A stretch of DNA of 63,698 nt, the filler included, from Klebsormidium nitens (Eukaryota > Plantae > Klebsormidiophyceae), in assembly GCA_000708835.1 (NCBI GenBank). It is 4 parts of 4 records of this genome, joined end to end, with 100 filler letters (N's around TTAATTAATTAA, not from the genome) between each part and the next. Parts side by side here need not be neighbours in the genome. Positions count along the whole stretch, not along the records: positions 1 to 13,949 come from DF238056.1; positions 14,050 to 29,741 come from DF238003.1; 2 more parts are not named here. One strand, given 5' to 3'. The notes under the pieces were generated by a model, which saw nothing but the letters and a program-made list of their open reading frames with translations, was not told where the DNA came from and did no database searches. Each line of letters begins with the position of its first letter. The first letter of the stretch is position 1. Shown here piece by piece: positions 1,279 to 29,854 of the stretch. The position numbers and the translations under genes were made by a program.

Positions 1279-4200
1279 TCTAGCCTTCTTTCATGCTCAA
1301 TTGCTCTAGAGCCCACCGACTGAACCAAAGCATATTCTTTCCTCGAACTCGCATGCTTCAGCTAGAGTATCTACTGGAACCATGTATTTATATAACAGTC
1401 AATTAGATGCAACTCGAAGGACAAGCATCCAGGCTTCTGTTGCAGATAAAGCGCAAGGACGGCGGCGTATACCTCCACTCAGCATTGGAGAAAGTATCTT
1501 AAGGGTTGGAACAAACCTCTCATAGTTCTCGACTTCATCGTCAGACTCTTGGCATGCATCCCTCGCACATATTTTTCCACGAACTTGCGATCTACATTGT
1601 TGTATTGGATTCCGTAGTCAAAAACGGCCTTGCAGTATATCTCGTACCTGAGAACGTCCTGTTTAGTGACGCCTCCAGAGGGCGAATTCAGCATGCCTTG
1701 AATCTTCTCGAACTGATTCCAAGTTATGAGATGCCTTTTGCGCCACTGGTCAATTGTCTCATCAACGACTTCCTCAGCTGTCCCTAGGACAGACATCGCA
1801 GCCTCTCCCTCTGTCCGCATGCTCAATTGATTCACCACGCTGACCCCTTGCCGCTGAAGATCCTCTGTGACCAGCTCGACATAGTATTGCCGACTTTGCA
1901 GCCGGCCCAACAAATTGTTTGCATACAGGTTGCACGTTGCAGAGGTGCGATCATAAATAGGACGCTCTCCGGGAGCACCCCGCAACATGTCCAGATGATC
2001 CATCGAGACCCCTTGCATCATATCGGCTAATTGCTGATCGCTATCCTCTAACATACGAAACACCTCTTCTTTGGTACTCGGGTAAGCAATTATGCGGCGG
2101 CTGGGGATCTTGCCGTAGAAAATTTGGATATCTCCAGCATCTCTCGCCCTCTGTATCTGCTGCATTAGAACCTGGACGTCGGGATGATGATCGGAGTTAA
2201 TCGCCACCGCAATTACCACATCGTAACTATTCTTTTTCTCAATCGATACACCAGGGCCAATGGTGGGCGTAAATGCAAGGCAATCCGCAATAAGCGCGTC
2301 GTCTGGATTCGAGATTGCGTGCTGCAGCAGCATCTTGTCGGATGTCTCTCGCTTGTCGCCATGAAAAGCAATGAGCTTCTTTTCCGGAAGTCGAACCTTG
2401 AACGCAGCCTCCAGCAGCTCGACGAACATCTTGCTTGTGGCGGGAACCTGGAATGCCGCGACAAGGAAGGTTTGAGTCACGGAATTTTTGAACGACTTCT
2501 AGTAGCTTCTAGGGCTGAGGGCCTCGCCTCACGATCTTGGGCCTCGAGAGTGACAATTCAAAGAGTGCGTAGATCGAGTCGGAACGTGAATGGGAGAAAA
2601 GGAATTCTTGAACCGCGACTGATTCCGAATTTTTGTCCCATTTGTGGCATAGCCTACGCCTGCCATACTTACAGCCCTCGAGCAACAGGAGCAAGAATGC
2701 CTTTGGAGATAAAGTCGGAAGCCAGATGGGAAAAAAAAATATTCCTCAACTATACGTTTTCTCGAATCGCAAGTTTTTTTTGTTCCCGTCTCAACTGATA
2801 TTGAGGGTCTGCTGGGCTTCCAAAGCCCCGGAGCAACAGACGCAAAAATGCCCATATCGAGTCGGAAGGCGAGCGGGGAAAAAAGGGCATTCCTATTATA
2901 TACGTTTTCTTGAATCGCAAAAATTAATTTTTCCCGTCCATCCGAGGCTGAGGGTCTGCCGGACTTGGGGCCTCGACTCTCGAAGCGATCGATGAAGAGG
3001 GCAAAAAATAGAGTCTGAGCTACAAAGATCAGGGAGCTGAGTCTCTCTCGTGAGCTTTGGAACGCAGGAGTGCGGAACAGATCGTCAATCAGTTAAGTCG
3101 AGAGAAGCGATTTCAGTAACGGTGCTCACCATGACACTTTTCTCGGATGCCACAAGGTCTAAAACTCTCTCCACTACCAGAGAGTAGGTCTCCTTGGGCT
3201 GCCGCTTTCCCTCAAGCGGTCCAGGCATGGGCATGATGAAGGCCTTTCGGGTCGAAGGCCAGACGCCGAGATTGCGGATGGTGTAGAAACGGCTCGTGTG
3301 CCGCAGGGTTTGGATCCATTCTACCACGCGGGGGCAGTTCAGATGGGCGTCGCATAGAAACGCCGCTTTTGCGCTAGCAACAATCCCCTCGAGGGCCATA
3401 AAGACCCGCTTCTTGTCCTTCATGACAGTTGACGCCATGTTGGTCAGCGTGAAGTTGACTTCGTCCATGACCACCAGATCGAAGTAAGGCAGTACCCTCG
3501 CTATCGAATTGATACAAACCACCACCCGCCTTGCAGTTATCTTCCCCCCTGCCTCATCGAGGTAGCATACAAAATCTAGCCCGTCCTTCTTGGTCTCTTC
3601 GTGGTATTTTCTAGCCAGGGCGATATTCGAAGCGATCAGACAGACGGAAGCCTCGGCGGGCAATTTGGGCAATAGCCCATGAAAGAGCTCTTTGGACTTC
3701 CCCGCGCCCATGTTGGCCATCACGAGAGTCGTCTGAGGCTCTGCATCACGGCAAAGGTTGGGGACGGGGTACCCGAGCATCCGTCCGACGATGTTGTACT
3801 CGCTGCTCCAGGACACGATACACTCCGCATCCAGTTGCAGGACCCGTTGTAATCGCTCAGTGCTGCTGCCGCCATGTACTGCAGCGCCGCTGTGAATGAA
3901 TAGAGTTGAATGTTTCAAGAGGCCATTTTGAGAGCACGATAAAACACACAAGTTCGGCGCCTCACCGTTTTGCTGATGGACTTTGAGAACCTGCCGCCTA
4001 TCTGTCCATTCCATGCTGAAGCTCAACCGCGCTTGGGCAGAACCTTGTCTTGTGTCGCAGTTCAGTAACTAAACTTTTCCTTGATCGGATCTTGGGGTCT
4101 TGCGGAAGACGAAGCAGAACACGAAAGACCCTTTCAATGTCCTCACCTGCAGGACGTCGAATGGCACCTGTAGAAGGCCCTGGATGGCGAGCGCCTGCTG

Positions 4201-7110
4201 TACACCAGGTAACCGCACGCGTTCCCCGGAGACGAGTGCGCTCGCCCCGCTATCCAGCAGAAGGGGGTGTTGACTCCGAAGTGCACCGTGAAGACGTCCT
4301 CGCCCATGGCTTCAGCTCGGAGGATCCAGGCGCCTGGATGGTCCCTCTGGTACCTTCGCAGCAAGCGGTCTTTCTCCACATTCGTCAGAGGGTGTTGCAC
4401 GTGAGCTCTCTCCACAAATGTTCCCCTGAGCCCTCGTGCTGGAACCCTCGCAGGGTGCTGAGAGACGGATGCCGCAGGTTCCGCCCGCTGGTTGTAAGCC
4501 GCCAGCAGGTCGCCGTCGAGTTCCGAGGCCGCTGCTCTGTCTGCTGGACTGTGAAAGCCGATCAAGTGGTCCGCAATGTCGCGAGAGCTCCCGACTGTTG
4601 GCGCGAGAGGACGGCCCGACCCCTTCTTTTCGGAGTAAAGGGTGCGCCAGTTCTGAAACGAGCTATAAACGGTTGTGTCGATGAGGCACTTCTCGACAAA
4701 GACTCCTTCCTTATTGTCTTGGAAGAAGAGGAATTCGCAGCTCCGCCGCAGCTGCTTCGGGGGGTTTTTAAGGAAAAGAGCCAGGGCTTTCTTCAACTCG
4801 ACTCGGGTGGACGAGTCCTTCAGACAGAAGCCTTGCAGGCAGACATGGGCGCTGAACTTATACCCTCCGTTTTTGTGCTTCCCATGGGCGGTCGCAACCT
4901 GAAAGGCAATTGCTTCCGAGGGGACCTTGAGGACCTGCTCGAGGAAGCCACGCAGCACAATGTCGCAATGTTCGAAACGTTCTTGGAAATCTCCTTCGTC
5001 CCGGCCCCTTGTTGAATAGTCGATGTCAACATAAAACTTCGAAGAGGTATGCGCGTCGATGCATTCGTAGTGATTCAGGACGATACCCTCTGCCCGCAGC
5101 CTTTCCAAATAACCCACGAAGACGCCAGCGTTCGCAAAGCTCGAAAACTTCTTATGCCCCCCGGAGGAATACAAGTCACAGGATCCAATCAGAGCGTGCT
5201 CTTGTGCTTGCTGGTGCACAACGGCTGGTGCCTTCTTGTGGAACCAGAGCTGGCCGAGGAAGTCTTCGTCCAAAGGATGATGCTGCAGACATACAAGAGA
5301 TGCTGTCAGATATGCAGGCCCGGAGAGCGAGTCATTGGTAGTATCTGGCCCCAGAGTGATAAACGAATGACTAAACCGCATAGCGCAGATCGACATGGGA
5401 AAAAAAAGCTTTTATAACCTATATACTTTCTGAATCTGGAAAGCTTTTTATTCCCGATGCATTGGGCTTTAGATGCGGGCATTCTTGGGGCCCGAGAGCG
5501 ATCCTGGGCACCCAAATGACGAGTTCTCATGAGCCCAAGTTTCGAGCCGTCCCCACCATCCTACTTCGTTCCGATCTGCAGAACTGCTTACGTGGTTACT
5601 ACCATCAGCCACATTAGCCAAGCTATTCCATCCCCGGAGGTGAAAGTGTGCCTTCTGCTTTTCGGGCCGCAGCAAGAGCTCACATGTTCGAAGGAGAAGC
5701 AAGGCTCTTCTTCCTGCTTCCGCTTCACGCCCCTTTGGCTCGGCAACAACATGGCGCTCGTGCTATCAGGAGGTGCCTGAGGGAATTGGTGGGTATGTCA
5801 GATGTTGCTGACGGCATCGTCTGAGAATTACAACTCGAGAGCGAATTCAACAGGCCATTCTGGACTCAAGAAGTGCAAGGCATATGAGGGCTTGGAACTG
5901 CCACGTGGCACTTTTTGCTGGTCGAAAATGCTCGGTGCGCCCCTAACTGAAGCTCTAATTCAAAGGCACGCAAGCTGTCCTACTAGCCTCGACGTACGTG
6001 CATGCAAGCTGGTTGACATGGTACCTTGACTTGCCTGCTGCAAGGAGTTGCCGTCCCTCGTGACAGTGGCAGCAGGATTCATGAGTTCCTCGCTGGCATC
6101 GAGGGAGGCGTTGGAGTCAGAGCGCTCTTCTCTAGCAAGGGTAGGCGGGATGTTGGTGCTGAACTCGTGAAAGGGGGATCCGGCGTCAAAGGCTCGGCTG
6201 ACAATGGGGCCCTGGCAAGAGGGGGACTCGTTTAATCCGTGCCACTGATGATCTAGCGAATGAATGAATGGCTGTTGCAAGGCAGGCAGCACCGACCCTA
6301 AGCCCCAGAGGGGGCGGGAAAAAACAACTTTCGCGATTCAAGAAAACGTACAGATAAGGGGATTTTTTTTACCCCCATCTGCCTTCCGACTCAATCTATG
6401 CATTGTTGTATCTCAGCGCTCCAGGGCCCCTGTAGAAGGCCGTGGGTATCATGTATTGATACTGGAAAGCATCACAGGGGCAGCATCGCCTACCGAGAGC
6501 ACATCAGTCAAGCGCTGCATATAAAAGACCGGCAAATGCATCTGCTGAGAATTTTTCTTCGAAATGGAGCAACCTGCGGGTTGGGATTAGAGATGCACTC
6601 TACTCTCAGCAACGGGTCCAAGAAAAACGCTCACCTCCATCCACACTTCTGTCACTCTCGAGTTCCCATCACCGCTCTCCACGTGCTTCTCACTGACCCT
6701 TGGGCCCGTTTGCGATAGAGGCGGGACCAAGGCTGACGCTGATTTCGAGCTGCCCACCGCTTTGAATGAGGGCCCTGGATTGCTCTCGATGCCTCCAATC
6801 ATCAGGAAAGTGGCTGCAGAGTTTGAAAAGACGACCTTGCGATTGGGTAGGCAGCCATATGGAACAACTCGGATATCTCAGATCAAAGCTAACAAAACCG
6901 TGTGCAGGGCGTGTGCATCACGTGCACGCACTGAGAACAACGTCCAGGTCTCCACTTGTAAGGAATTTGAATCCCTTACCTAGAAGTTCATGGCTCAACG
7001 GCTTTGATGGAGAAAGCGCTGCTTTGGAGCTGGCCTGATCCCAAACCGCACAAGCGAAAAGAGTCAACGCAAAGCTTGGAGACTTTACCACTGTTTCGAA
7101 AAGGCTCTGC
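676..7110 (-). CDS. spliced AEP primase-Zn knuckle-UL9-like SF2 helicase fusion gene (virus-like replication protein) with N-terminal 2A-like motif; 5' exon structure partly unresolved
   Basis: Four collinear minus-strand ORFs joined by GT-AG introns. ATG|GTGAGC at 3130 splices to CAG|GTTCCC at 2447, giving SVM-VPATSKMFVELLE. TGC AG|GTGAGG at about 4147 splices in frame to an AG near 4050. Candidate 5' exons lie at 5684-5776, about 6040-6250, 6630-6813 and 6980 upward. One phase (5684 to 5344) and the 1479-to-1278 junction are not resolved. Confidence 0.7.
1479..2447 (-). CDS. UL9-like SF2 helicase, C-terminal RecA domain exon
   Basis: Motifs PATSK, IAFHGD, FTPTIGPGVSI (motif V) and MQQIQRAR (motif VI); acceptor CAG at 2448-2450. 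Confidence 0.8.
   Translation of the reverse strand, partial: VPATSKMFVELLEAAFKVRLPEKKLIAFHGDKRETSDKMLLQHAISNPDDALIADCLAFTPTIGPGVSIEKKNSYDVVIAVAINSDHHPDVQVLMQQIQRARDAGDIQIFYGKIPSRRIIAYPSTKEEVFRMLEDSDQQLADMMQGVSMDHLDMLRGAPGERPIYDRTSATCNLYANNLLGRLQSRQYYVELVTEDLQRQGVSVVNQLSMRTEGEAAMSVLGTAEEVVDETIDQWRKRHLITWNQFEKIQGMLNSPSGGVTKQDVLRYEIYCKAVFDYGIQYNNVDRKFVEKYVRGMHAKSLTMKSRTMRGLFQPLRYFLQC
2576..2936 (+). repeat. three degenerate copies (2576-2639, 2713-2788, 2859-2936) of a ~75-bp repeat in the helicase intron
   Basis: Shared pattern GAGTCGGAAG..GGG(A)n..TATACGTTTTCTYGAATCGC..(T)nCCCG; the first copy is the most degenerate. Confidence 0.8.
3130..4050 (-). CDS. UL9-like (Herpes_ori_bp-type) SF2 helicase, N-terminal RecA domain exon
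   Basis: Walker A ANMGAGKS, motif Ia LIASNIALA, Walker B DLVVMDEV and motif III LCDAHL. Confidence 0.85.
4143..5396 (-). CDS. archaeo-eukaryotic primase (PrimPol/UL52-type) with C-H-C-C Zn knuckle
   Basis: AEP motif I FYVDID, motif II KFSAHV and motif III IDTTVYSSFQNWRTLYSEK; Zn knuckle CWIAGRAH...FYRCHSTSC. Confidence 0.9.
   Translation of the reverse strand: MSICAMRFSHSFITLGPDTTNDSLSGPAYLTASLVCLQHHPLDEDFLGQLWFHKKAPAVVHQQAQEHALIGSCDLYSSGGHKKFSSFANAGVFVGYLERLRAEGIVLNHYECIDAHTSSKFYVDIDYSTRGRDEGDFQERFEHCDIVLRGFLEQVLKVPSEAIAFQVATAHGKHKNGGYKFSAHVCLQGFCLKDSSTRVELKKALALFLKNPPKQLRRSCEFLFFQDNKEGVFVEKCLIDTTVYSSFQNWRTLYSEKKGSGRPLAPTVGSSRDIADHLIGFHSPADRAAASELDGDLLAAYNQRAEPAASVSQHPARVPARGLRGTFVERAHVQHPLTNVEKDRLLRRYQRDHPGAWILRAEAMGEDVFTVHFGVNTPFCWIAGRAHSSPGNACGYLVYSRRSPSRAFYRCHSTSCR
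5387..5456 (+). repeat. degenerate copy of the same ~75-bp repeat
   Basis: GGGAAAAAAAA..TATATACTTTCTGAATC..TTTTTATTCCCG. Confidence 0.6.
6315..6392 (-). repeat. inverted copy of the same ~75-bp repeat
   Basis: The reverse complement reads GAGTCGGAAGGCAGATGGGG..TGTACGTTTTCTTGAATCGCGAAAGTTGTTTTTTCCCG. Confidence 0.8.
6770..6813 (-). other. 2A/StopGo-like motif (A)TFLMIGGIESNPGP
   Basis: Direct translation; the exon begins after CTGCAG (6814-6816). The upstream donor CTAG|GTAAGG at 6980 gives SHELLATFLMIGGIESNPGP in frame. Confidence 0.65.
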
Positions 7111-7456
7111 CAGAGTCATGCTATCAGCTGCACAAGAGTGGACTTCTAGCATGTAGTAAAAGGCTGACTGTTCCTTTGAGGTCCGGGTCGAGTCCTCCGG
7201 AGCATTTTGCATCCCAGCGGGAATAGGAAAGTTGGTAATGAGGATTTTGAGTAGGAGTTTTGGATTTTATAGGCCCGCAGACGGGCAGCTCCTGCGGTCC
7301 GGTCCGGTCCCGATGCCACGTACAAGCTCCGAAAGGCCATAATATACAGTGGACTGATCCAGACACTAGAAGGTGGCAAAGACTACCAAGTCGGACCGAA
7401 ATAAGCTGCAACGTACCTACACGAGGGATTGGACCGGAGCACCGGACCGTGAGTGC

Positions 7457-7604
7457 ACCCCGAAGTTAGCGGATCGGTTCGGGCCCCGGGTGTTTTACCG
7501 GACCAATTCCGGGGCGACCGTAGCGCGGCGCGGCAGCGCGTTTCGCCAATTGGGGGCGACGCGTGGCACAATGTGGTTGGTCCTTTTATGCCGTTCAACA
7601 GATG
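7457..7604 (+). repeat. ~148-bp direct repeat, copy 1
   Basis: ACCCCGAAGTTAGCGG...GCGTGGCACAATGTGGTTGG...CCGTTCAACAGATG, matching 13793-13941. Confidence 0.9.
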
Positions 7605-8375
7605 CCTTGGACGTCGAAGAATAAACGGATTGCAATTAGCTGGGAGTCTGAGACGTTGACACTTAACACCGAACGGATGAGATTTGCGCGGTTGTCTGAG
7701 AGGGCAGATGAGATACAAAGGTACTAATGCGATCAGCATGTTCTTCGTCTTGTAGAGTTTGAAAACGTGAGCAGTTAGATAAGTGTGAGCTTACGACGAG
7801 GCAAAGAGCCAATCGAATCGTGTCGCATGAGAGGAGGGGGCAGACTGCAGCGTACTACTTGGCACGAGAAAAAGGTAGCACATGTGGGCATTTGCTGAAC
7901 CAGAGGATGGAGCAAGTTCTGACCCACAGTGACTGCTGCAAGTTCTGGAACGTTCCAACCCGTTGCACCAACTCAGCACTATCTGTATTCTTGTCGTGTG
8001 GAATTGTATCCAAATTCCTGACCCTGTTTTGGCATCCAAATCTGCGGGTTCCTTGTAGCAATAAGCATGCATGTGCCAGAGCCAATCTTCATCTCTCAAC
8101 ACACCAATCTTTCTAAGAGCTCACATCTGAGACTTGGTCTGCTGATAGCCAGCTCTTTCAAACCCCCAAACTCTACGCGTTCGCACCGCTTTCGCGGCTC
8201 TCTCCGGACCCGACGCGCTAGTCGTGGGGCGCAGCAATTGAAAGCCGGCTTTGCAGCACCTTTTGGGGGACGTCAACCAGCTCGTTTTCGTAGAGTCGGA
8301 AAGAATAGAAACGGAAAGAACAGGTGGAGCTGGGGCTCAAGAAGGCTTCACACTTCTCCGTCAAATGGATAAATT

Positions 8376-8965
8376 TTGTCTAAAGGAGCTGAGCACTTTT
8401 TACCACGTTCGAGGTACGGAGACTACTTTCGAGATACAATAATTTGCGCTTTTAGCTCGTTGTTGTCCGTGACAGAATATGTTGACCATTTAGTAAGTAA
8501 CAAAAAGGGCATCCTCAAAGCCCTCATCCCCAAAGCTAACGAAGCGAACCCTGCGTAAGGAGGAGAGGGAAAGATAAATGGTGGGAAATTTTTGATGCTT
8601 CAAAAGGCGAAAATTGAACTAAAGCGACGCGCAGGAGGAGCAGCCAGGCTTTAGGGCAGGCCACACCGTTACCAATGCGGAGGGAGGTCGAGGCAGATGG
8701 GAGACCGGCAGCTGTGAAAGAGAGGCCACCCGAGCTTCCGTTGAGATCGGATCGTCAGGAGAACAGAGAGGTGCGAACACATACTCGAGAAATTGCGCGC
8801 ACCCACGGAGAAGGATCCCCCGAGACGGTGGGGATTCGGAGAGAGCGAGTTGCAAAAAAGGTGCATCAGCTGGCGCGACTCGTGGAAGAGAGCACATGAC
8901 GAGCATATCAAGCCGTTCGGCAAATCCGCCCACAACGGCCATCTTGATCTAAGTAAAAAGCAGAG
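8376..8965 (+). pseudogene. degenerate ORF with possible Myb/SANT (trihelix)-like segment
   Basis: Stop-interrupted reading frame ...CEHILEKLRAPTEKDPPRRWGFGESELQKRCISWRDSWKRAHD; the resemblance to Myb/SANT-like helices is weak. Confidence 0.25.
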
Positions 8966-9808
8966 TACGGGACGGTTACTGTCTTGTCGTACTGGCCATC
9001 CGCGTCGTTTCGACTTGCAAGCTAATATGATATTGTACTTTGCAGTCCGGACTCTGGGTCAACAGTCATGGTCCTTTGACCCCTAGTTCCAAGCCCTCTT
9101 TGCGTTGATTCAGCAGCCAAGACGGCGGCATACCCCCATGTGTTACTAAGTTAGGGTTTGCTTTTTGCACGAATAAAAGAAAGCCAGACAGAAACTTCGA
9201 GTGCCGTGCATGGAATATATTGGCCTGCATACATGGCGTATGTTTGCATGGGTTGCAATCTCTGGCAACTAGATAGATCGCGGCACACCCTTGTGAGGGA
9301 GATGTGAATCTGCACGAAAGTAGGCAGGCTCTGGAGTGGCCAATAAGCCCATTCCCTACAGGCTCATGCAGAGGTATCCAGAAGATACCACTAGCTTAGG
9401 CCACAATCTTCATATAAGACTCAGAGGCGTTGTGAAATCTGCTTTGCCTCACTCTTTCGAGGAAACATATCATCATCCAAGCGAAGAGGAGAAGCATTCA
9501 CTTGCTTATTCTAGCTCACAATTTTGGCATGCAAGTGACACTCTCCAGATTACATGGCAAGCGATGACACAGTCACGGTCGAGTCTCCTGATTTGAGATG
9601 GAAAAAAGCTGCTCACGTATTTCAGGTCCACTTTCGATTGCGCTCTCAGTTTAAGATATGTTTTGAGTAGAGCTCTTGACTAATTGGAGGAGCGCTATTA
9701 GTCTCACTGCGCTTTGACAACTAAGATGAGACATTTGAGCGATATGCGTACGACAATCTGAAACGACTCTGATCTCGAGAGCATCACATGCCCACTGCCA
9801 CTACCATA

Positions 9809-12800
9809 TCAGGGCAGCGCCCACTTTTGCGCCGCATAGAAGGACTCCACCACATGCCACAAGTTCTGCTCCTTCAAAACGGGGGCCATCTCCAGCAGAT
9901 ACCCCTGAAGGGCGGCTGCCATGTAGTTACCGGGCCAGGTTGCGGACGGTACAGACTGCAGGATGGGAAGGACGCCTTCGACATAGGCGCAGGCCCAATG
10001 CGGCTCCGTGACTCTGTGGAAATAGTTGAAGTTCGCCTCAGCTTCGCTGCACAACCGTGGCTCATCAAAGTTTGCGCAGATGTGAGTGCCATACAGAAGC
10101 AGTGGCCGATCCCCAAGCTTTCCAACTGAAGCCCCCGACGCGCCCGGCGTCGTTGATGCTCGGATCTTCCCTAGCTCCTCAGAGTGCGCAATTGGATCCC
10201 CCACGCTCACGGACACGGTGTCTGCAGATCAGGACACAACCCGTCAGCTTACCATCAAGACTGTATGGTCGCAATGAAAAGATCCACGACATCCCAATAA
10301 ATGGTAGGGCTGAGGGATTGACAACGAGCTTTCATCGTTACTTGTGTCCACGCTTCATTCCCTCTTTCGTGTCCTCCAACGAGAAATCGGTGCATGAAAA
10401 CTGAGACTTCAGTTTCTCGTAACCATCTCTGGCCACTGAGAAATTCAACCAACTCCACCACTGCCGAACGGAGCAAGTCCTTGTGGTAAGCAATGATGCA
10501 AAAGAAAGATTCACAGCAACAAGAGCCAATGCATATAGGTGCATAGGTCTAATTTGGGCAGCATACCCTTGTCTTCGTGCTCTGCAAATCGTGCACAGCT
10601 TCAGCGCACCTTCACAGAAGTGCATACGTTCAGTGGTCCTGAAAATAATTCTGCTGATAGGTATACACATAGAAACAAACGCTCCTAGGCAAAGTCTTCG
10701 TTGCTAACGGCCTAGTAATTGACTTACCGGGGCACAGGACTTCCGTATTCATTTGGTAGGCGAGGAGCTTCTCCCGCCCCTTCGGGACCTTGTAAGTCGC
10801 ATTGATAGCGCCCTCCCTGACTGCCCCTGCAATTTACACAGAAGCAAAAAGTCGTATTCCCTGAGGAGCATACACTAGCGAGCTGTTATCCTGATGTACA
10901 AGTGACGATTCGATAATGCACAAGGTGCGTGAAGTCCTGACCCCTCGCAGACCCCGCAGCAGAAGACTGGTGCTCTTGGATGCTCTAAGGCACAGCCCTT
11001 CATATTTATGGAGCAGCTTGATGTCTTCCAGTCCCTGAGAAAACAATCCATCCTTCAATCACCCAATCAGGCGATTTCATAAGATGAATCTCGGTTGCAT
11101 TGAAGGTGTAGATGAGTCACACAGAGATATTCAGGCCCAGTCAGCACTGATCGGGGCTCACTATCACATGTATGTCAAAGTCAACAAGCTATAAATTGAC
11201 ATCATGGGCAGAACTGCATAGAGCGGGAGTGCAGAAAGAAAAAGGTTCATTGTTAATCTTTCCAAAGTGCTGCCAGCAAGCCTGTGATAACAGGACTCCA
11301 GTCTCCTGAGCATCTTTAAACCACAATGAAGCAGTTCCTGTCACTCACCCGGCACTTGAAGAACATAGTAGGTCTGCCCCGGCACCGGCTCTTCTGCAGT
11401 TGGAACATACCACCACTGGTTCGTGTGCTTGCGGTCATTGGTGTAGGGGAAAGGCTGGTTTGTGAAGGGGCTGCATTCTGCCCGGATGACACCTATCAAG
11501 AAGTCTAGACTATGGGGCCGACCAGAACTTGCGGTCTCCTTCACCCCGGAGTAGACGCGGGACCGGCTTCTACCAGCCACATCTGGTGAGACGTAGCTGG
11601 TAGCTCGGCCGGGTCTTGTCGGAACCTCGTTGCGCGCAAGGATCTCCACTCCGGTCTTCCACGCCCTTGAGGAGGTCATGGGCCCAACTGAGGAGCGGGC
11701 AGTAACTGATGGAATCTGTTCCAAGTAGCAAGGAAGTTGGAATTGAGAACAAATAAATCCAACTCCTTCAACTTGCTGCCAATGATCCATGAAGGTCTTC
11801 TTGCTTTAACTACACAGACAAATTGCAGAAACATCTATCCACCAGTAGTCTGTCCATTGTCAAAAGCAAGGCTGCAGCCGTTTGCTGCACCTATAAATGC
11901 CAGCCCCAATGGTTTCCCATATCTACAGCTGTATACACATTTCTCGGCAGCCTGACCCCGTTGTCTTTGGTGAATCCTCCCAAAACTAGGAGGTGAATGC
12001 ATATGATAGAGGTTGTGATCAGCAACTGAGAAGCACAGAAAGAGACCGTGAAGCACAGAAAGAGACCAAGAAGCATAGCCAGTGCTCTGATGATAACCCT
12101 TCCTGAATGGCAATGCAAAAGCAACCCTTCAGTGCCCTTCTCTTTTGTGCTTCCAAAGTTTCCTTTACCAGCTTAGATCCACCTCTCCTGGTGAAGCACT
12201 TGAGCAGTGTGACCAACACCAACTCGACTGGCGCCATCTCAGATAGCTCTGACTAAAACAGTTATCATAACCTCCGTCCCTTGAGCCTGCCCAAACTAGT
12301 CTTGTGTTGCTTCATAAATTCTCCTCACGAGAATACCTTGGAAGGTAAGGCAGATCCTCAATTGTGTTGGCAAGCGCTGGCTGTAGGACTTACCCCTGTG
12401 CCTTCCGCGATGGCATGCCCTGCCGATCCAAAGGCCACTACGTGATAAGAGCGGGGGCTGAGGACTGACGCATCCTGCTTAACCTTAGCCGCAAGCGTGT
12501 TCACATGTGCATCCAGCTCTGCTGTTCGACAAACAGGCGGGGACAACATGTATGCTGTCGCGCGGCCGCCGGTCCCATCTCTTAGTGGCAGAACCTGCGC
12601 CCCATTGAAACGCAGCCGCTCGGCATGCAGCAGCTGCTCGTCGGCAGGCAGGTCATTGCTGCAAAAAGGACCAAAGAATTACACATCAGATGACATGTTG
12701 CCGGCAAGAAGAACAAAAACACCGAGGTCAACATCACCAGCTATCCATGAACAAAACCTCATCCATGAACAAGACCTCATTTATAACACAGCATCCAATT

Positions 12801-13180
12801 GAGCAAGCGCGATGGACACAAAGGACACCTGTATCCAATTAGTGATATACGCCCTAGAAACCTCAGACCATTGTGTCTCACTTCAAACCAAGATCACTGA
12901 AAGGGACGAGAAGACCCATGGTGTGAACTCACTCAAAGACGAAAGGAGCGGCTGTGGCAAGTTGGAAGTCTTCATCGAGCGGCCAGATCTTCTTAAAGTC
13001 CTTCACTTCGTGCGTCCACTTCCCTTCCTGACGGATAAGTCGCTCCTGCGACGGGGCCTCGTCCATGGCAATTCCCAGCAGACAGCGAGGAGTAGCGGGC
13101 ACAGAGGTGCTCTGCTCGAAATTGCTCAGCCACGTTGCTCGCAGGGACTTTCTACTGTGTGGCTTGGACGCTCCTGAACA
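9809..13180 (-). CDS. orphan multi-exon gene, unknown function
   Basis: Three exons (ending 11349; about 10829-10728; about 10222-9809) splice in frame through canonical phase-1 GT-AG introns. Further exon-like segments lie at about 12000-12250, 12395-12660 and 12920-13180. Confidence 0.6.
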
Positions 13181-13792
13181 CCAACGAACGTTCTCATGGT
13201 TATGGTCAGGGGAGCAGGGACCTGGCAGGGAGCAGCGACCTGGCAGGGAGCACCTGAAGTTCGCCGCTACATATACCGTAGTCCAAGGTAATGAGTCCGA
13301 ATAAATAAATAATTATTTGCATTCGGAAAGTCAGAAATTCAGCTTTCCCGTTCGGAAAGTTCAAATTCGGAAAAGTAAAATAATCCCGAAATGGTCCTCG
13401 GAAGGCGAGAAACTGCCAAAATAGGCCTCAAATTTCTTTTTCAAGTGCAAACATAGGGCATTCGGATTCTGGTCGGAATCTGCATTAATAATTGCGCATT
13501 CCTGGTCGGATTGTTGGAAAATATTACTGGGAAAATCCGTTCGGAATCATCACGTTGGACTACGGTACCTTTGCACACCAGTTGGCGCGTCGAATATCCA
13601 CCCAACCCATGGCCCGGCCAATTTCCCTGCAGCATACGCGATGAACCATAAGGAGCTGGAAATACCATAAGGTTTCGAGCTTCACCCTTACCGCGCAGCG
13701 GCAGACCGTTTCCGTGCATTCCCTTGACTTGAAGTCCCAGCCTAGATCCTAGCATTCTCGACATTCCTAACAGCAACTGTGGGCACCTACAA

Positions 13793-13941
13793 ACCCCGAA
13801 GTTAGCGGGTCGGTTCGGGCCTCGGGTGTTTTACCGGACCGATTTCGGGGCGACCGAAGCGCGGCGCGGCAGCGCCTTTGGGGGAAAGGGGGGGACGCGT
13901 GGCACAATGTGGTTGGTTCTTTTTATGCCGTTCAACAGATG
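13793..13941 (+). repeat. ~148-bp direct repeat, copy 2
   Basis: Matches 7457-7604; abuts a scaffold gap. Confidence 0.9.
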
Positions 13942-13949
13942 GTTAGTTG

Positions 13950-14049
13950 NNNNNNNNNNNNNNNNNNNNNNNNNNNNNNNNNNNNNNNNNNNNTTAATTA
14001 ATTAANNNNNNNNNNNNNNNNNNNNNNNNNNNNNNNNNNNNNNNNNNNN
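13950..14049. other. scaffold gap with TTAATTAATTAA spacer
   Basis: N run with a central six-frame stop spacer. Confidence 0.95.
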
Positions 14050-14348
14050 TATATGTCGCCCTTTACCTGGCGACAGTCCAAGTTTCGCATGCGATGGGCC
14101 CGGGAACAGACCATGCGAATCATGCGAAGTGTGCGAAAGAGGCACTAGAAAGTCGGCCTAGGTGTTGTACAAAACACCCGTACGGCTGGGTGCGTAGTGC
14201 CCGTGCAGGTCTTGACTGCGGTGTTCAGTTGCAGTACAGCGGATTTGCTTTCTTACGGATCCGATCGTATGGCCAGTACTTTCGGATCGAACGATCTGTG
14301 TCCTTTCGGAAATTTGAATTCAAAAACGGTTGAACTGGGGCCAGCACC

Positions 14349-16779
14349 TTAGAGGCGCCAGGTCACTAGGTGCAGAAACGATGAAAGCTGGCAATTGCAC
14401 AGAGAGCTTAGCAAGAGGGTAAAAAACATGGACGCCATTAACCCTTTGGTGTCTGCTAGTCCTTTTGAGCTGCAAAGATAGCTGGCAGGGGTTGAGGAGA
14501 CACGGGATAACGGGAAATACCGGCCTGGCCTCAAAAGGGGGAAGCTAGGGTCTCTAGCTGGGACGGTTCTTGACATCCTGCAGGATCAAAGTGGAACGTA
14601 GGCTCCTGTGTGTTATATATATGAAGCTCTGACCCTGCAAAAATTGCCTCCCGAGTGCTCTCTGAATATTGCATTGCCCTTCTTGCCTTTGGGATCATCA
14701 CATAATGGTGATTCTAGAAAGTCAGCCTCCTGCTGGACTTGGAGCAACAACAGTTCCACTTGTGAGGAGGAGGACGCGGCTGACAGCTGAAGCAAATGGT
14801 TCTGCCTCAGCGTTGGATGAAGCGGCTGGCCAAGCTGCAGGGGGATGCTCAGCGCACACAGTGGATCGATGTTCGGTCCAGCATGGCCGAGGGACCCACC
14901 GCTGCACGTCTGAATTGAAAGGGCAGTTTGCAAACCCTGCATGTTCTCTGTTAGATCTAAAGGACCTCCTACTCACAGGACATGGGAAAGGTCAGCCCAC
15001 AGACCTGTTGTCCATCTCTTTTCATGCGGTACACCATGTCGCCGTGCTTGAGAGCTGCCAGTCTTCTGTCCTTCAGTGCTCATGGCAACCAACTACCTAG
15101 TTTTACTTAGTCACAGCAGACAATATTCTGCATCTTTGAGGTCCTTAGAGATGGCCCAGGACGTTGATTTAACTGTCGAAATTGGAGAATGATATATGTT
15201 CAGTGTCATTCCTCTATTAGTCAGGGCCCTTGACCTAATCCAGAAAAGAAACACTCTAATAACCTGTACTGACTGGCGCTCGCTGCAAAACAAATCCATC
15301 TTAGTGTGGATTTGACATCCCCTGCGAGCACCTTTCAACCGCAGGGCTGCCCTCACGGCCACGTACCCAATGTGTTTGAGGCTGAGCTCAAAGGTGCAAG
15401 CACTGTAGGCATGGTAGATGAGGGGTCGGGCAGGCCTGACTTTTTTGTGCTCTGATGGGCATGGCAGGAGACCTGGCTTTCAAAGCGGATATGATAGTCA
15501 TTTAAAGTCAGGTGTTCTTAGCAGTGACCCAATAATGCAATTATCTAAGATTACTTGCACCGGGGCGGCTTATCCTAGCAGACGCTCCGTGATCTGACAT
15601 GTTGGTTCGATCATCTGGTATGCAGATCTCCATGGCATCCAGTGCGACAGCTGCGCGCTTGCAGCGGTTTGCGGGCGCCGTGGCGGCCAGAAGGGGGGGG
15701 CTACTGAATGGCGCTGTGAGGAACATCAGGATCGACTCCCTGCTGGAGCGCGGAGTGCGGCGTCCGCTGGCTACTTCTCAGTTCACAAGAGCTGGGAAGG
15801 TAGAAACTCTTCGACATTATTGCATTTTTAAAAAGTTTGGGAGCTTTGATCAGTTTGAGCTTGCTCGTGTCGTCTGCTTTCGTTCTCTCATAGGAATCAT
15901 GCATTCAAAGATGACCTTTCTGGGGCAGGTCATTCTGCTTGGTCATCCATTACACCTTCATTCTCACATTGCAAATGGAAGAAGGCTATCTTTGAAAAGC
16001 ACTACAAGCATAGACTGCGCTTGACGAACGTTTACCCTTTGCTGTTACTTGGAATACGGGAAAGGCTTGTCTGTGCAGTAGCCAAAGTCTGCCCGGCATT
16101 GTGAGCTGCTACGTCCCTCCAACGTCCAAGATCACCATCTGATGGGCTGCCACGTGAAGCAGTACTCCTCTCCTTACAATCTGTATTCTAGTTTCGAAAA
16201 TCAAGAGGCTTGAATCGAGTACCGACATGGTCATAAATCTCGTACAGAGTGGCTCAAGCGCCGGGAAGAGCGAAGGTGCCAACTGAAGGAGGCGCTTGAA
16301 GGGGCGAAGCAAGAACAACAGAACCATATTCGGAAGCTCCAAGAGCTGCATACGGCTCTTGTGCAGGACGCGCTGGCGCCAGCTCGACACATTCTCAGTG
16401 AGTGCCCTATGCAAAGATGTGTACTGTTCATCCGAGACAGCTTTTTGACAGAGCGAAAAGGTTTTCACACGTCCGATCCAAGGTAACGCCGTGTACAAAT
16501 GGAAGAGAGTGCTACTGTGTGTGCGGCAGCCTGCAATAAAGCTTTCTAGTCGTTCCTTGAACTTGCAGTACTTAGCAACAATGGCCGTTATTCAACCAGT
16601 GAAAACAGTGGATTCCGTGAGAAGCGTACGCTCTTTTTATTGCAGGGTGGGCTGGTTGTGAACGCTTGCGGAGGTGCTTTGCTGAGTATCAAGTATACCA
16701 TGAGCAGTCCATGCCAGCCGGTGTCGAGGTTGGCATAAAGCACATTCTGAGCAGAGCGCTCATTGGTGGGTTCGATCAC
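14349..16779 (-). CDS. orphan multi-exon gene, unknown function, divergent from the recombinase
   Basis: Exon-like segments with splice signals: VIEPTNERSAQNVLYANLDTGWHGLLM, FKERLESFIAG...LLELPNM, ...ARPLIYHAYSACTFELSLKHIGYVAVRAALRL and RLAALKHGDMVYRMKRDGQQ. The full model is not resolved. Confidence 0.45.
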
Positions 16780-17066
16780 CTGTTACCGACGACACGTGGA
16801 CTCTGACTTTTCTTATCTTTGCTTTCAACCCCCCTTTGTATCCTGTGCATCAACTCGCTGGACTGGGTTTTCGTGACTCGAGGGACGCTTTTAAGTTTGC
16901 TCATCCCTCAGTATTCCGGCGGATTCTCAAAGCTTGCCACTTTGTTCCGATTTGAGTCAGGTCAGGCTATCCAACAAATGCAGATTCTTATCAAGAGTGT
17001 AGGAAGAACTCGTTGTGCCCTTTAAGCAAGCAACTGATCAAGCGTCCCTTTTTGTTCTTGCGGCAG

Positions 17067-17110
17067 ACATGCTCCTGCTTCGCGGGAATGTGGAGTCAAA
17101 TCCTGGACCG
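17067..17110 (+). other. 2A/StopGo-like motif (D)MLLLRGNVESNPGP
   Basis: Direct translation; the exon begins after GGCAG at 17066. Candidate upstream donor TCAG|GTCAGG at 16960 (phase 1). Confidence 0.7.
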
Positions 17111-20100
17111 CCAGCTACAGACGAGCAGGCGCGGGTTGACGGTAAGCTTTTGCAAATAGCAGATTACTTTTGGAAGGTACATGACGTCATAGATTGAAAG
17201 GCAAAAGATCAGAGGATCATCCGACTGCACTTTTCAATAAGTGTCGAGTGTGGGTGGGTAGCTCTGAAAAGCCTCCAAAACTGCATCAGTCGAGTAAGGC
17301 TCGGCCTCCCATACTTGCTTATCGATCATATGAGTCGGGCTCATTTGAGTTAAGGCCGTCGAAGTTTTGAACAGGTCTCCAAAGGATCACAAATCACAGG
17401 CAAGGAAGATACGCCTCCTTAGTCAACTATTTGCGCCTGGGTTGTCACTTCCTACAGGTTTTGTTGAAGACGACTACTCGTCTGAGGACGAGCCACTGAT
17501 TCGCCGCACTACTCTCAGCAATCCTGCTCGGTCCACACAACCAAGACCATCGACCGGGGCCACGTCGGAGCTACCCAATTGGCAGACGGGGTGTGCAAGA
17601 AGTAGGAGTCGACAAAGCGGCCAGCGTGGCAGAAGTGGCGTCTCTAGATTGCCTTCAAATGACGTACGCCAGGAGCATACAGGTGACTCGTTTCATCTGT
17701 GCTTCTGTCTTTCGGGCTTTTTCGATTGTTCCAAGCTTTCGTCCTGCGCTTGTTAGGTGTCGCCTCCTCGGGGTCCTCTCGAGCTCCACTCTTCGACCTC
17801 CCTTTCTGAGGTAACATCCTTTTCGGTGGTGCTAAACATGTCATTCTCTCTTTGCCAGCTGTTAAGCTCTCCATTTGCACCCGACATTGAATCAACCAGG
17901 AATCGGTCACCAACTCATTAACTCCGGGCAATTGTTCTCGTTTTTTTTTCACTCTTTGAGTCATGTCCTTCCTCCAGTTTCCTTCACTCCTTGATTCTGC
18001 TCGTTGCAATATTCCATTGCCCTCGCATCACTGCTTTCTTCCCGTTCTTCTTTCTCTTTCACTTCATCCATCACCTTTGCGTTGGGCTTGCTCCTTCTTC
18101 GGCTTCTTTCCTGAGCTTCTGCTCCGGCTGAGTGCACCGCCTACTCCCTTTGACCTTTTTAAACTGATCAGTCCTTCTTGGACATGCAGGCGATGTCGGG
18201 AACTCGCCCCCGACTGCCAATCCCGATGGCGATCACCGATCTGCAACCGAGTGGCCAATTCAGCAGGCTGCTGCTGTGGCCACCGGTCCCACAGCACCGG
18301 GAGCAGCTGCTGAAACGGGACATGGGCAGCGCTCAACCCGAAGCAGGGGGCGTGGTAGGGGCAGAGGATCGGGGACTCGGAGACAAGCAGGCAGCCGGAA
18401 GCAGGGCGTTGGTCGGAAAAGTGGGACGAGTATCCTGGACACAGCGCTTGCGAGGCCCACGGATGGGACTGGCAATCAGCCGGGGTCCGAGGGGGTTGCT
18501 AACGCACAGGATCGAGAGAATGCGGAAAGGCAAGGGGTTCTTGGAAGAAGAGAGCAGAATTCGGAGTGCGTCGAAGAGGACACGGAGGAGCGAGCTCAAG
18601 AGAGGCACGTTGCTGACGCCCGCTGGAATGCTGCAATCAAGAAGGACGCCAATCTGAAGCCGAAGAGCAAGAAGGACTACATTCGAGGCCTCAAAACTTA
18701 CAAGGTAATATCTGTAGGGAATCAAAATTGACCATATGATTGATGACTTGAGAATCCTCTTCCTGCTCTTTCGTCGCCGCGTGCACGACACGCCTGCCCA
18801 TGTAGAACTTAAGTGCAAAGTCAGGACCAGGTTCATCTGATACAGGTGAAATGCGGACTCTAGCGATTGTATGAGACGTCTAGTAAGAGTTTGAACGGGG
18901 GGTCAACCCCGCCTGCGTTATCCAGCTAATGAGCCTTATAGATGCTTCGTCTCTGTTTCTATGTTTCTTATGGTGTGAGAACAAAGCCAATTGTATAGCC
19001 GTATATTGACCTCCAAAGACAGGTTACCGGAGGCGAAATTCAGGGTGTATCAAGGCATTTGCTGGCCTTACTCATGCCGTTTCCTGTACTCGCGCAGCAT
19101 TTCTGTGTCCAACACGGATATGGGAGAGACGATGGTGACTGGGCTCCCGCCAGATCTGCGGCAGTCCTCAAGAAGCTGGGCGGCAGTACGTTGCCTCTCT
19201 GGGCATCAGGCCCTCGAATTACGGTGGACAGAATTGCCTTGGCTGTCGATCTGGTCGAAAAGCTGAACGATCAAGATGAAATGGTGAGTGATGACATCAG
19301 CAAGCGCATGGCATGAAGTTTTCTTCACGCTTGTGGCATCGTTCCGTGTTTCTTGCGATTGTCTAGTTTGGTTGTGCTGAGCGATTGTTGCGCTTGACTG
19401 CGGGCTTATTTGTCCTTAAGAAGATATTGGCAGAATGGTTCCTGACAAGTCTCCACAAGAAAGGCAGGCTATGTAGCAGCTCAATGCTTTGAAAGGACCC
19501 TTCTGCATAACCATATGTCTTCGAGCAGGCTCTTAGACGTTTCTCTTTTCACTGGAATCTATGTGAAGCACGCAACCGATCTTTCATTGCCGCTCCATGT
19601 AGTCCATTGGCGTCGTCCAAAACTTCTGCAAGGCACTGCAATTTTACGCCATCGTCCAAGACTTCCTCGAGGGTATACATACCTCGAGCATGGACGTGAG
19701 AGCCATCCATTCGATGCAAGAGCTTTTGAAGTGTGCAGCTGGCAACACTGCCAACAAGAAGATTCGGTGAGGGTACAACATTTTGATCGATAAGAGAGCC
19801 GCTCGAAGGGAAGAACCCCCGATCACTGCAGCCTTTGACCGCAAAAAGCTGGAGCCTTTGCAATCGCAACGTGACCAGGCATGTTCAGTTGCCCTCCTTA
19901 GAAAATACGGACAAAGTCTCGATGCTATTGACTTGGGCGCGCCCTCTTCGCTTGCAAGCTTCCAAAGACCTTCAACATTCAGATCCCAAGACTGGGTCCC
20001 AGCAGATGGCTTCACTATAGCTAGAGATTCAAACGACTCCGCTGATCATGCTTGATCTTCGATGTGCAGCGCATGTGCAGACCGACAAGAAGGTACAGAA

Positions 20101-20572
20101 TCGGACGGATACACCGAGGAAGAGAAGCTCCGCTTAGCGCAGGCTTGGCTTGCGAAGGGGACCAGGTTGGTGTCTGGTGACGCTGAGGGAGAAGACGGTG
20201 ATGTTCATCAGCACACCACCATGAGGTGAGTAAGCTGGGCCCCGCAACTTAGAACTGTGTGTCTTTTTCTAGCAATCTCTTGTGCGGGAACCTTGTCATC
20301 CTGAGATAAGACTGCAGCCAAGTGATTCAAAAAGCGCGGTCAGATCAATGGGTTAGCAGCTGCCTTAATCCGCGTATTGCCCTGGCAGGATAGGATGAAT
20401 GAAACACTTGCGCCCAACGGTCAAAGATAACGGGACGTCCTCGTTCCCCAAAGGCAAGGCATGATACACGAAGGCACACTGTCCACAAATCCAAGCCGGC
20501 GTCACAGGACTGCTGTCTTTAAAGACGTCGTTTACAATACCATCGGACTTATGATTTCGAAACTTCTTGCAG

Positions 20573-22563
20573 AGGAATGTTCCTGACCTCTCACCAGTTC
20601 TGCCTCCGCGGCGATGATGCTCGGAGTATCGACTTGCCTGATCTGTACTCGAAAACGTACCGGCATGTCGGGCCGGACGTCCCTTTGTACGTGGGCGGCG
20701 TGAGCTACTCGGGGAAGACCAACAAAGTGAGAGCTTATACTTGAGTGCCCGAGGCTGAGTGGCTGAAAATTTGTCATGCTTCTCGGAAAAGATCGAAGAT
20801 TCCTAAACCGTTGAGTCGTCTATGTTTTCTGGAACAAGTAGACTCTTGAAATGCACGCGAACAGTTGCGAGAACGGTCTAGGAACTCTTTGGAAAGATCC
20901 TGTGACCCGACACTGTTGCCCAACCCTTTCATCGCAGAACGGGCGTCTGGAGTACTTCGGTGGCATCCGCCACATGCAGGTCGAACAGTGTGCGGTTGGG
21001 GCGGTCGCCATGCAGCTTTTTCAGACGTTCCATTTGTTGGGTGCCGATGCCCCTGACTTCAGCAGCAGGGAAAGCTGGTGGGTACTTCTTCGATCTGATG
21101 CACTCATTGTGCTTCGCCAATTTTGCTCACTGTCGATCACGAGCAAGCTTTTGTACCTTCAAAGAACAGCCGCTTCTAGAGCCGGTTACAACGTAGTAGA
21201 TATGATATTCTGTCTTTTGGAAGAAGAATCTTGACGTCGAAGACCGATAAGGCCCAAGGTTACGAGTTTAGGCCGTGACGTTTTGCAATTTGACAAAGCA
21301 TCATCCTTCAGAAGGAAAGCATAATCCTTCAGGAGTTGGGTTCCCGCTCTTTCTGGCTAGCTTGCCGTTGTACGGGCTTTATCGCAGATTTGCTCACTCG
21401 GTTCTGAGGTTTTTCGCAGGTACAACTTGCGTCCTCTCTTCTACGAAAATGATGACGTCAGCAGGAACGTCACGTACAATACGCAGCTCAAGCACTTCAA
21501 GCAGGCGTACGGCGAGCAGGAGATTGTATCCAGCAAGCTTACGCATGCGCCGCGCGGCGCATCAGTGCGGCATGCTGAGAATAACGGGTGAGCATTCACA
21601 CCATTCGGGACTTTTCGAAAAAAATGTTACCTCGTCAGAATGTCAATTTCAAGCTCAAGCTGCCCCGCAACCCGATAACCGGTCGCACTTGCGTGTTGCT
21701 CTGGATGCACGGGCAGAGGAGTGTCAAGAGTGCAAGGTCGTCAGTCCAAACTGAGTTCTTGAGGGCGTGCTTCTCGTCAGCCAAAGCCAAACCTTCGAGC
21801 ATGACTGACACCACAAGTCTGCAATGATGTTTGGGGTCCCGCCGAGATGATCTCGGGAAGGCGTTAATTACAGGGCTCTCGACCAAAGATTACTGATCAA
21901 TCGTCTCCATAATTTCTCTGCAGCGGCAAAGAAGCTGAGAGTGCTCGGCTCGGCCGTTGGATCTACGATCACTTCCGGACTTCGTACCTGCACCAACTTC
22001 CAGTCGGGATTATGCTTGTCCAGGCGGGATTCAAGGACGACCGCAAAGGGTACTTTTTCCCACGTGGTCGGGTGCTCCCCTCAGAGGACGAGTACCCGGG
22101 TTTGGCGAAGCAGATCTTTCCCTGGGCCGACGAGGAGCTGCGGAAGGTGAAGCAGGTATGTTCCTTGATACTTGTTGGAAGACTTTTGATGGGTTCCAAA
22201 ATGAATCGCCATTGGACATCAGTGCACGTGTACAATGATCTTGCTGCAGTTCCGCTTCCTCGGAAATATAACCCACTGATATTTCTTCTAGCGAGCATTC
22301 AATCTTCATTTGCAGAGGAACCTAACAGGGCCAGCCAGTCAGCGCGACATCGCCGCGCAAAAGTTCCTGGAGCTGCTCATCGAGTTGCGGGCGGTGCTGC
22401 TGCAAGACGTGGCACTCCTCCAGCGGATGGGGAGATACGAGGACCATCCAATCATCTACCACCACTTCTTCGAGGGGGAGGAGTGGGACAGGTTCTGCGA
22501 CGCTGTAGAAGCGGTGTGCAACGCGCCTGCTCCTCCTCCCGAGCTCGCAAACATCCCCCCGGA
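20573..22563 (+). CDS. tyrosine recombinase catalytic core exons (Crypton/NDC10 type)
   Basis: Five exons (about 20573-20733, 20940-21079, 21421-21588, 21924-22156 and 22316-22563) splice in frame and carry R, HxxR, W and Y. Confidence 0.9.
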
Positions 22564-23802
22564 GGTGAGTAGAGTAAGCGCATCAAGTTTCGCTTTGCTT
22601 GGTGGAACAAGATGTCAAGCATGAACTTCGTTTCCTGTTTCGAAAGGTGGGCGCTTAGTTTCAGTCTTCTTGATGACAAAGCGCGCTTATGCAGGTCTTC
22701 GGCTGTCTTCAAAAGCCAATCCGGTACTTTAAGCAGTGATGTCCTGATTGAAAACCATAAAGAGTCACGTTTCACATCCGCCGAACATGCTCCCATTTTT
22801 TACTTTACCAAACATGACTCCTTGCACTAAAGATTAGACCCCAGCCCATTGCTACATCGCCAGCCAGCTCTCTATCGGCAACCAGGATCTCTCGGACCTC
22901 AGCATAAAATGAGATGAATTCAAATGCGCGAGCCAGCTTAGCACGAAGCCGAAACTATTTTTCGATGAAGCCCGCTTGTCTTTGCAGGTGGTTGCCGTGT
23001 TGCAAGATCAGCAGGTGCAGCTTGCGCGCATCGAGCGCGAGTCGCAAGCCTCAAGGGAGCGCGAGCAGGCCCTGCAGGGCCAGATGTCCGCCGTGCTGCG
23101 CGTGCTCGAGCGGCTTGTATGCGCGTTTTCAGGCGCAGACGAGCAGCCAGCGTCGCCGGCCCCGTCGGCCAGACCCGCTGCACATTCGCCAGTAACCCCC
23201 GAGCCTCGGCGGACGACCACAGGGTTTTTTGCCCGCCCTCCGTCGGCGCCTGTCGCGGCCGCTGCAGAAGCGGCTCTTCGAGCCGCTGCTGTGGCAGCAC
23301 GAGCGGCGGCGGCAACACACGCTGACGCCGAACAAGCCAGTACTCCCCCTCAGAATGAAAGCGGGTCAACGGGTGACGTGGCATCCAGACGTGCGACTGA
23401 AGCGGGCTCCCTCTCCGCCGACAACGACGAGATGGATCTTGAGCCAGGTCGGGCATCTTTCGATCCTTTTGCAATTGATTTTCGTCTTCTTTTCGGAGTC
23501 AAGTGCTGGGCGGGAAAAAGTGTCCGTCGATTGGAGCCGCAATAAGGGCAGCTCGTCGAAGCCGTTTGAGAAGGCCTCTGATCGGGGAATCGTTCCGATT
23601 GCGCATTAGCTAAAAGGCTTCAAAGGAATTTGAGACTTTCCGAGCTCATTCGTCTTTCTCGAAAAGATTAAACGCCCTCGTCAATCGAACGCGAAGCGCC
23701 AGGATGCGGACGAAGTGAAGGTACAGGGACCGGATAACCGGCCGATTCTCATACGATTCCAGGAAGGAGCTCAAATTGTGACTTCTTTGCCCACAGATTT
23801 AG

Positions 23803-29741: not shown

Positions 29742-29841
29742 NNNNNNNNNNNNNNNNNNNNNNNNNNNNNNNNNNNNNNNNNNNNTTAATTAATTAANNN
29801 NNNNNNNNNNNNNNNNNNNNNNNNNNNNNNNNNNNNNNNNN
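29742..29841. other. scaffold gap with TTAATTAATTAA spacer
   Basis: N run. Confidence 0.95.
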
Positions 29842-29854
29842 TAGCGCCGTTACA

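Follow-up and report, generated by a model that had tools for sequence, protein, structure and literature searches.

So far, natural StopGo (2A) peptides have chiefly been found in RNA viruses and retrotransposons, with a small number in animal genes. Two are encoded in the DNA analysed here, a 63,698-nucleotide (nt) window of Klebsormidium nitens (GCA_000708835.1) made of parts of four records joined with filler. One peptide, M1, heads a gene for a likely primase-helicase and the other, M2, heads a gene for a Crypton-type tyrosine recombinase. M1 and M2 share with the L-rich 2A/StopGo peptides (class A of Rao 2025; motifs 2 and 6 of PMC12846837) the core and an apolar hexamer ending in G. Motifs 2 and 6 usually have Asp at position 12, whereas the K. 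nitens peptides have Gly or Asn, tend to lose activity when Asp is substituted, and are intron-split and encoded by nuclear, intron-rich genes. The 2A peptides of APE-type non-long terminal repeat (non-LTR) open reading frame 2 (ORF2; PMC3708506, PMC3894237) also lie ahead of a mobile-element enzyme and are proposed to limit its level, but the domains downstream in K. nitens are a tyrosine recombinase or a primase-helicase with no APE/RT, and the recombinase leader is predicted to have 257 amino acids (aa) as against about 40-80.

The recombinase gene resembles CryptonF (PMC3212892) in joining a tyrosine recombinase to a C-terminal GCR1_C domain and has at least four genome paralogues. It differs in adding a predicted N-terminal zinc-finger/coiled-coil leader and a 2A, and its mobility is putative. 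The 2A of sea-urchin NLR proteins (PMC4981915) is cellular and N-terminal, as in K. nitens, but it is a signal peptide at the very start of the protein, whereas M2 lies far from the start and the K. nitens products are nuclear-type enzymes. Fusions of an AEP primase with a UL9-like helicase occur in Polinton-like and giant viruses, and the Atlas neighbours of the K. nitens gene are Herpes_ori_bp clusters of Mucoromycota and Preplasmiviricota. Unlike those fusions, the K. nitens gene is intron-rich, and scans of IMG/VR with primase, recombinase and helicase gave no relative. No capsid or packaging ATPase was recognised among the ORFs scanned on either scaffold, a type of scan that short exons escape. 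Giant-virus insertions have been reported in K. nitens (10.1101/2025.04.15.648976), and PMC12846837 reports that no StopGo use by plant viruses was found.

What is already known comprises 2A peptides, their G and N variants, and a K. nitens recombinase 2A in a 2026 supplement. The supplement of PMC13405545 (Snell & Matreyek 2026) lists K. nitens GAQ92643.1 (P0048) as a skipping, tyrosine-recombinase-domain protein together with three other recombinase rows, and its library includes the exact coding sequence (CDS) of M2. The main text of that paper has no match for Klebsormidium, Crypton, Ndc10, intron or helicase, and 'primase' is absent from its file 4. In the literature searched, which included PMC12338488 and PMC13405545 (media-1, -3 and -6 of the latter aside), neither an intron-split 2A family, nor its association with Cryptons, nor a primase-helicase bearing a 2A was found described.

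In six-frame translation of the window, the pattern [DGCN][VI]ExNPGP has exactly two matches (M1 and M2) in 127,392 codons, with 0.0004 expected. The 20-mers, SHELLATFLMIGGIESNPGP for M1 and SRALIDMLLLRGNVESNPGP for M2 (using donor 16765), align in register with 10 of 20 residues identical, and in both an intron follows residue 5. The first 44 nt of each 2A exon, which begins in phase 1 behind a CAG acceptor, run to the end of PGP. The preliminary description had placed both motifs, and the starts and phase of their exons, correctly. The 60-nt coding stretches are identical at 31 positions. Both core octamers fit the 2A/StopGo definition (D/G/C/N)(V/I)ExNPGP, and by inspection the upstream hexamers, TFLMIG and MLLLRG, fit the L-rich pattern. 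On this sequence evidence the two 2A peptides are homologous, the common part appearing to be the 2A plus a few residues and not the whole leader. The common sequence ends at PGP, which suggests that different enzymes became fused behind an ancestral exon-intron-2A unit. A homologous leader module shared by both genes had been proposed earlier; this stands for the 2A, but the leader has no detectable counterpart upstream of M1, where a recombinase-leader profile searched against the window gave no match.

Each gene has its own assembly scaffold (13,949 and 15,692 bp), with an artificial spacer between the two, and the position of the genes in the window is therefore no evidence that they are neighbours; linkage by adjacency was rejected as a packing artefact. 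A homologue search showed the window exons to be identical to K. nitens proteins GAQ92716.1 (P0001, primase-helicase) and GAQ92565.1 (P0047, recombinase). The seven K. nitens homologues fall on seven records of different length in a fragmented assembly.

Both motifs lie in the spliced frame of an expressed mRNA. For the primase-helicase locus, splice data came from contigs of three RNA-type runs (two studies) and one DNA run; none of the runs listed is recorded as RNA, and the former are classed as such on the ground that GT-AG introns are spliced out of their contigs. The junction 6980/6813, predicted earlier, is found in all three RNA runs, is absent from the DNA run and is also used by the NCBI model GAQ92716.1. 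Contigs retaining the 166-nt intron are also present in the RNA data.

For M2 the frame is supported by the NCBI model, the paralogues and downstream RNA joints, of which at least 13 of GT-AG type lie between 17682 and 26026 (15 of the 23 joints at this locus were listed). The earlier junction 16960/17067 has to be replaced, the donor being most likely 16765. This donor keeps the frame open, agrees with the paralogues and is used by GAQ92565.1 and by the CDS in row 1907 of supplementary file 1 of PMC13405545. The splice-site score of 16960 is good, yet an exon 16912-16960 introduces a stop when it is spliced to the exon before it. The leader exon chain is a prediction backed by homology and the depth profile, and NCBI reads exon 15626 in another frame. 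From AUG 14705, in a strong context, the predicted spliced frame gives 1645 aa, of which 257 aa form the leader and 1388 aa follow the Gly-Pro bond. The leader encodes a CxxC...CxxH finger, a coiled coil and then SRALI of M2, and is identical to that of paralogue P0049 at 55 of 157 positions (35%). It matched no Pfam family, its Atlas scores are all under 0.8, and a suspected resemblance to EsV-1-7 repeats obtained no support.

The recombinase is recognised by Pfam (NDC10_II, E 1e-26; GCR1_C, E 4e-12), and R, HxxR, W and Y residues are visible by inspection, which we take to be catalytic. No terminal 6-bp direct repeats or defined ends were identified on its 15.7-kb scaffold. The helicase matches Pfam Herpes_ori_bp (E 1e-13) and a PDB origin-binding protein (E 4e-6). 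The likely primase has the DxD, SxH and D motifs and the C-H-C-C finger in order; it has no Pfam match, and PDB and phage sequence searches gave nothing. Its top Foldseek matches are poxvirus E5/D5 AEP and PrimPol (E 0.014-0.08), obtained with a poor model (predicted local distance difference test, pLDDT, 40).

The motifs are also conserved in paralogous copies. The recombinase family is multi-copy, with P0005, P0047, P0048 and P0049 on four records and one transcript 90-95% identical. The 2A is kept at the same place in all three full-length recombinase models found, despite 35% leader identity; P0002, P0003 and P0005 are models without N-termini and lie outside this count. A paralogous transcript of the M1 exon (one contig of run X5, compared by hand) has two synonymous and no amino acid changes over 17 visible core nucleotides, while four of the five codons directly after the core change residue. 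Another transcript, found in each of the three RNA runs, encodes PK-SRHLIAKL directly ahead of the core and is the same as row 2701 of the PMC13405545 library. The supplement of Rao 2025 gives two Klebsormidium LLRGGVESNPGP sites in one protein. Among 17 look-alike CDS rows in file 1 of PMC13405545, G occupies the donor position in all 17 and the Ile codon before the donor is ATA in 15 (ATA baseline in the window, 14/84), which fits a shared AG|GT donor and hence a shared intron. In GAQ93188.1, a K. nitens protein that is unrelated and whose sequence appears in a supplement, what looks by eye like this leader's zinc finger stands before the 2A. Of the representative-library matches, 42 lie outside the set of three full-length K. 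nitens models, and none of these has the 2A core, but most are fragments and say little on range. The metagenome scan with P0005 found no relative, and the single metagenome match to a family-shaped pattern is an APE-RT non-LTR ORF2 headed by a GVESNPGP 2A (L001 2977-2, minus strand), a class that is a possible donor of the K. nitens 2A and serves as a lead only. Judged from these sequences, both motifs belong to one K. nitens 2A family that likely shares the intron.

The departure from Asp at the first core position had been thought to make activity doubtful, a view that published data now reverse. In PMC12846837 the core is widened to (D/G/C/N)(V/I)ExNPGP and natural N variants have about 90% or higher activity. 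In the pooled HEK293T screen of PMC13405545, the exact M2 20-mer falls in the class of skipping with reduced protein, its Asp form being non-skipping, so that G or N at position 12 is no defect. Of the natural look-alike peptides, chosen by resemblance, 9/13 are classed as skipping in that screen, among them five of the six tied to Klebsormidium, and most family peptides are so classed without reduced protein. M1 matches 15 of 20 residues of one look-alike classed as skipping.

Taken together, it is probable that these peptides form one intron-split Klebsormidium StopGo family, with the recombinase likely freed from its leader by a Gly-Pro skip and its output likely lowered. The spliced mRNA would be read as leader-2A-enzyme, and the L-rich nascent chain would stall the ribosome, the leader being released at Gly. 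Some ribosomes would then resume from Pro and produce a recombinase free of the zinc-finger/coiled-coil leader, at a level limited by StopGo as proposed for non-LTR ORF2 (PMC3894237, PMC3708506). Skipping on algal ribosomes is inferred, as is attenuation as its purpose. Release from an N-terminal peptide is thus the best reading of M2. The splicing-dependent release put forward earlier survives to this extent, and splicing is needed to read the frame, but no isoform toggling release was seen. For the primase-helicase there is about an even chance that the same signal is used behind a short leader whose start codon is not AUG, the candidate being GUG 7091.

Several observations weigh against this interpretation. 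The 17 CDS rows are related and mostly lack a species label, which inflates the ATA statistic. The difference between natural peptides (9/13 skipping) and Asp forms (4/14) reaches only p=0.057 by Fisher's test on rows picked by resemblance. The class in PMC13405545 is assigned to 20 residues in HEK293T cells by a pooled Sort-Seq support vector machine with 86% accuracy on its own training set, and its authors advise that peptides be confirmed one by one. One peptide that lacks the core is also classed there as skipping, that of paralogue P0049 is classed as non-skipping with reduced protein, and M1 is absent from the library (files 1 and 3). No M2 joint and none of the four leader joints is among the RNA joints listed for the recombinase, and none of these lies 5' of 17679. 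Finally, the primase-helicase mRNA has no in-frame AUG before the 2A, the first being inside the motif at 6802.

This last point opens a tentative and somewhat unlikely alternative for M1, namely that a leader-2A fusion has lost its leader and that translation now starts at AUG 6802 or beyond, so that M1 is a relic at which no skipping occurs, M2 being unaffected. The RNA-defined exon 1 (7258-6980) has five AUGs, none reaching the 2A, and two in-frame stops (the last at 7118-7116) that no second-strain difference removes among the 16 of 19 listed from that strain's DNA run at this locus. A three-codon upstream ORF ends at the M1 splice donor, 11 nt before AUG 6802, and no zinc-finger/coiled-coil leader was found upstream. 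A relic would not be expected from the motif itself, in which 20/20 residues, on both sides of the junction, still match the pattern of the family, or from the conserved core of the paralogous transcript. GUG 7091 also has A at -3 and G at +4, and the sole listed second-strain substitution between 7091 and 6980 is silent in the 2A frame, against seven in the 167 nt upstream, a weak comparison. A +1 frameshift at 7104-7096 from the upstream frame was dropped, as the other strain alters both codons. RNA coverage is nil at 7386-7534 in the three RNA runs, and the first exon of the NCBI model (acceptor 7035) has no RNA joint among the three listed.

It is unlikely that the peptides act mainly as stall and fall-off attenuators that cut enzyme output, with separation of leader and enzyme incidental. 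The M2 and P0049 peptides do fall in the 'reduced protein' classes of PMC13405545, the class lumps plain skipping together with skipping plus fall-off, and down-regulation has been proposed for non-LTR ORF2 2As (PMC3894237, PMC13405545); but the prevalence of unreduced skipping in the family argues otherwise, and a conserved leader with protein domains, such as the recombinase has, is what a two-product polyprotein would show. A splicing switch, in which skipping of the 75-nt M2 exon would give a fused leader-recombinase without the 2A core, is quite improbable. That exon is in phase 1 on both sides and its loss keeps the frame, and since RNA contigs break at 17457, there is more than one way into the next exon; intron retention would account for this break, no such joint is among those listed, and the M1 exon is asymmetric, its skipping leading to a stop. 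A signal-sequence role for dual targeting, raised in the preliminary description and having a precedent in sea-urchin NLR proteins (PMC4981915), is very improbable: the upstream residues are L-rich and a GUG-begun M1 leader would contain a modest apolar stretch, but M2 is predicted to lie 257 aa from the protein start, and both downstream products are DNA enzymes with basic stretches resembling nuclear localisation signals. Chance or convergent matches without function could be argued from the low nucleotide identity of the two coding stretches, yet they are scarcely credible against the expected number of matches, the same intron offset, conservation in paralogues and the published activity class.

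Table 1. Coordinates of features in the window, with the evidence or remark for each.
Feature	Position	Strand	Evidence or remark
M1 core octamer GIESNPG/P	6770..6793	-	six-frame translation; skip predicted between G and last P
M2 core octamer NVESNPG/P	17087..17110	+	six-frame translation; 20-mer classed as skipping with reduced protein, HEK293T (PMC13405545)
Exon 1 of primase-helicase mRNA, encodes SHELL of M1	6980..7258	-	one RNA contig (run X9), unspliced
Intron, 166 nt, GT-AG, splits M1 after residue 5	6814..6979	-	three of three RNA runs
Exon 2 with 2A, 179 nt, phase 1 to phase 0	6635..6813	-	RNA joints; skipping shifts frame
Candidate GUG start, ACA-GUG-G context	7089..7091	-	would give 51-aa leader ending in 2A
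Likely AEP primase (DxD, SxH, D motifs) and C-H-C-C zinc finger	4149..5282	-	motifs compared by eye with PMC4027207
UL9-type superfamily 2 helicase, exons 3891-3109 and 2447-1533	1533..3891	-	Pfam, PDB, tblastn
149-bp repeat, copy 1	7457..7604	-	upstream of primase gene
149-bp repeat, copy 2	13793..13941	-	upstream of multi-exon gene at about 13065-9810
Artificial spacer N44-TTAATTAATTAA-N44	13950..14049		between two separate scaffolds
Predicted leader exons 14705-14990, 15626-15799, 16248-16397, 16646-16765	14705..16765	+	open frame, paralogue P0049, depth
Intron, 301 nt, splits M2 after residue 5	16766..17066	+	NCBI model P0047; published CDS
2A exon, 75 nt, phase 1 on both sides	17067..17141	+	skipping keeps frame, deletes core
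Remaining 15 exons, Crypton-type tyrosine recombinase (NDC10_II and GCR1_C)	17458..26840	+	RNA joints; Pfam

Other features surround the two genes. On the primase-helicase scaffold, each of the two minus-strand genes has upstream of it a copy of a 149-bp direct repeat (copies 90% identical) that begins A|TC when read on the minus strand. DNA contigs of another strain contain both flanks, and the repeat may be a shared promoter or an element end. A repeat family of about 115-150 bp occurs in both orientations in the primase-helicase introns (2561-2966, 5390-5459, 6294-6408). A deep, unspliced RNA contig of 1.7-1.8 kb without a long ORF covers 7648-9491 in three runs and may be a long 3' untranslated region or a non-coding RNA. 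The adjoining multi-exon gene (13065-9810, minus strand) has no Pfam match; its last exon encodes GASGASVG, a stretch reminiscent of trypsin-like proteases. On the recombinase scaffold, three exons of the gene (23199-25544, plus strand) are internal duplications encoding an Ala-rich RPxSAPxAAAAE repeat, and a spliced, expressed transcript (27700-29700, minus strand) converges on it. The third scaffold (6,788 bp) carries a frameshifted Helitron-type gene (DUF6570, Helitron_like_N, PIF1; 29786-35632, minus strand) without a 2A core, and ORFs of the fourth encode LysM, WD40, PHD-finger and retrotransposon gag domains (39193-39801, 51106-53337, 58874-59494, 62448-63698).

A wider possibility, tentative and rather unlikely, is that both genes serve a single undescribed family of Crypton-related DNA elements in Klebsormidium, intron-rich and self-replicating, with the recombinase as its module for integration and the primase-helicase as that for replication. 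A portable exon-intron-2A unit would attach different enzymes behind leaders, StopGo would control the amounts of these enzymes, and translation of the primase-helicase would begin at a non-AUG codon. If this is true, DNA mobile elements of a streptophyte make use of natural StopGo, which viruses of that lineage reportedly do not use.

The expressed, spliced K. nitens family places StopGo before DNA-acting enzymes in a relative of land plants. The intron that interrupts the peptide is a mark of common descent and evidence that a 2A has spread between unrelated genes, and through such an intron-marked family the idea that 2A peptides are linkers for domain acquisition becomes testable. The natural G and N variants appear to lose activity when converted to the canonical Asp, which would be useful for models of tunnel interaction and for co-expression tools in the plant lineage.

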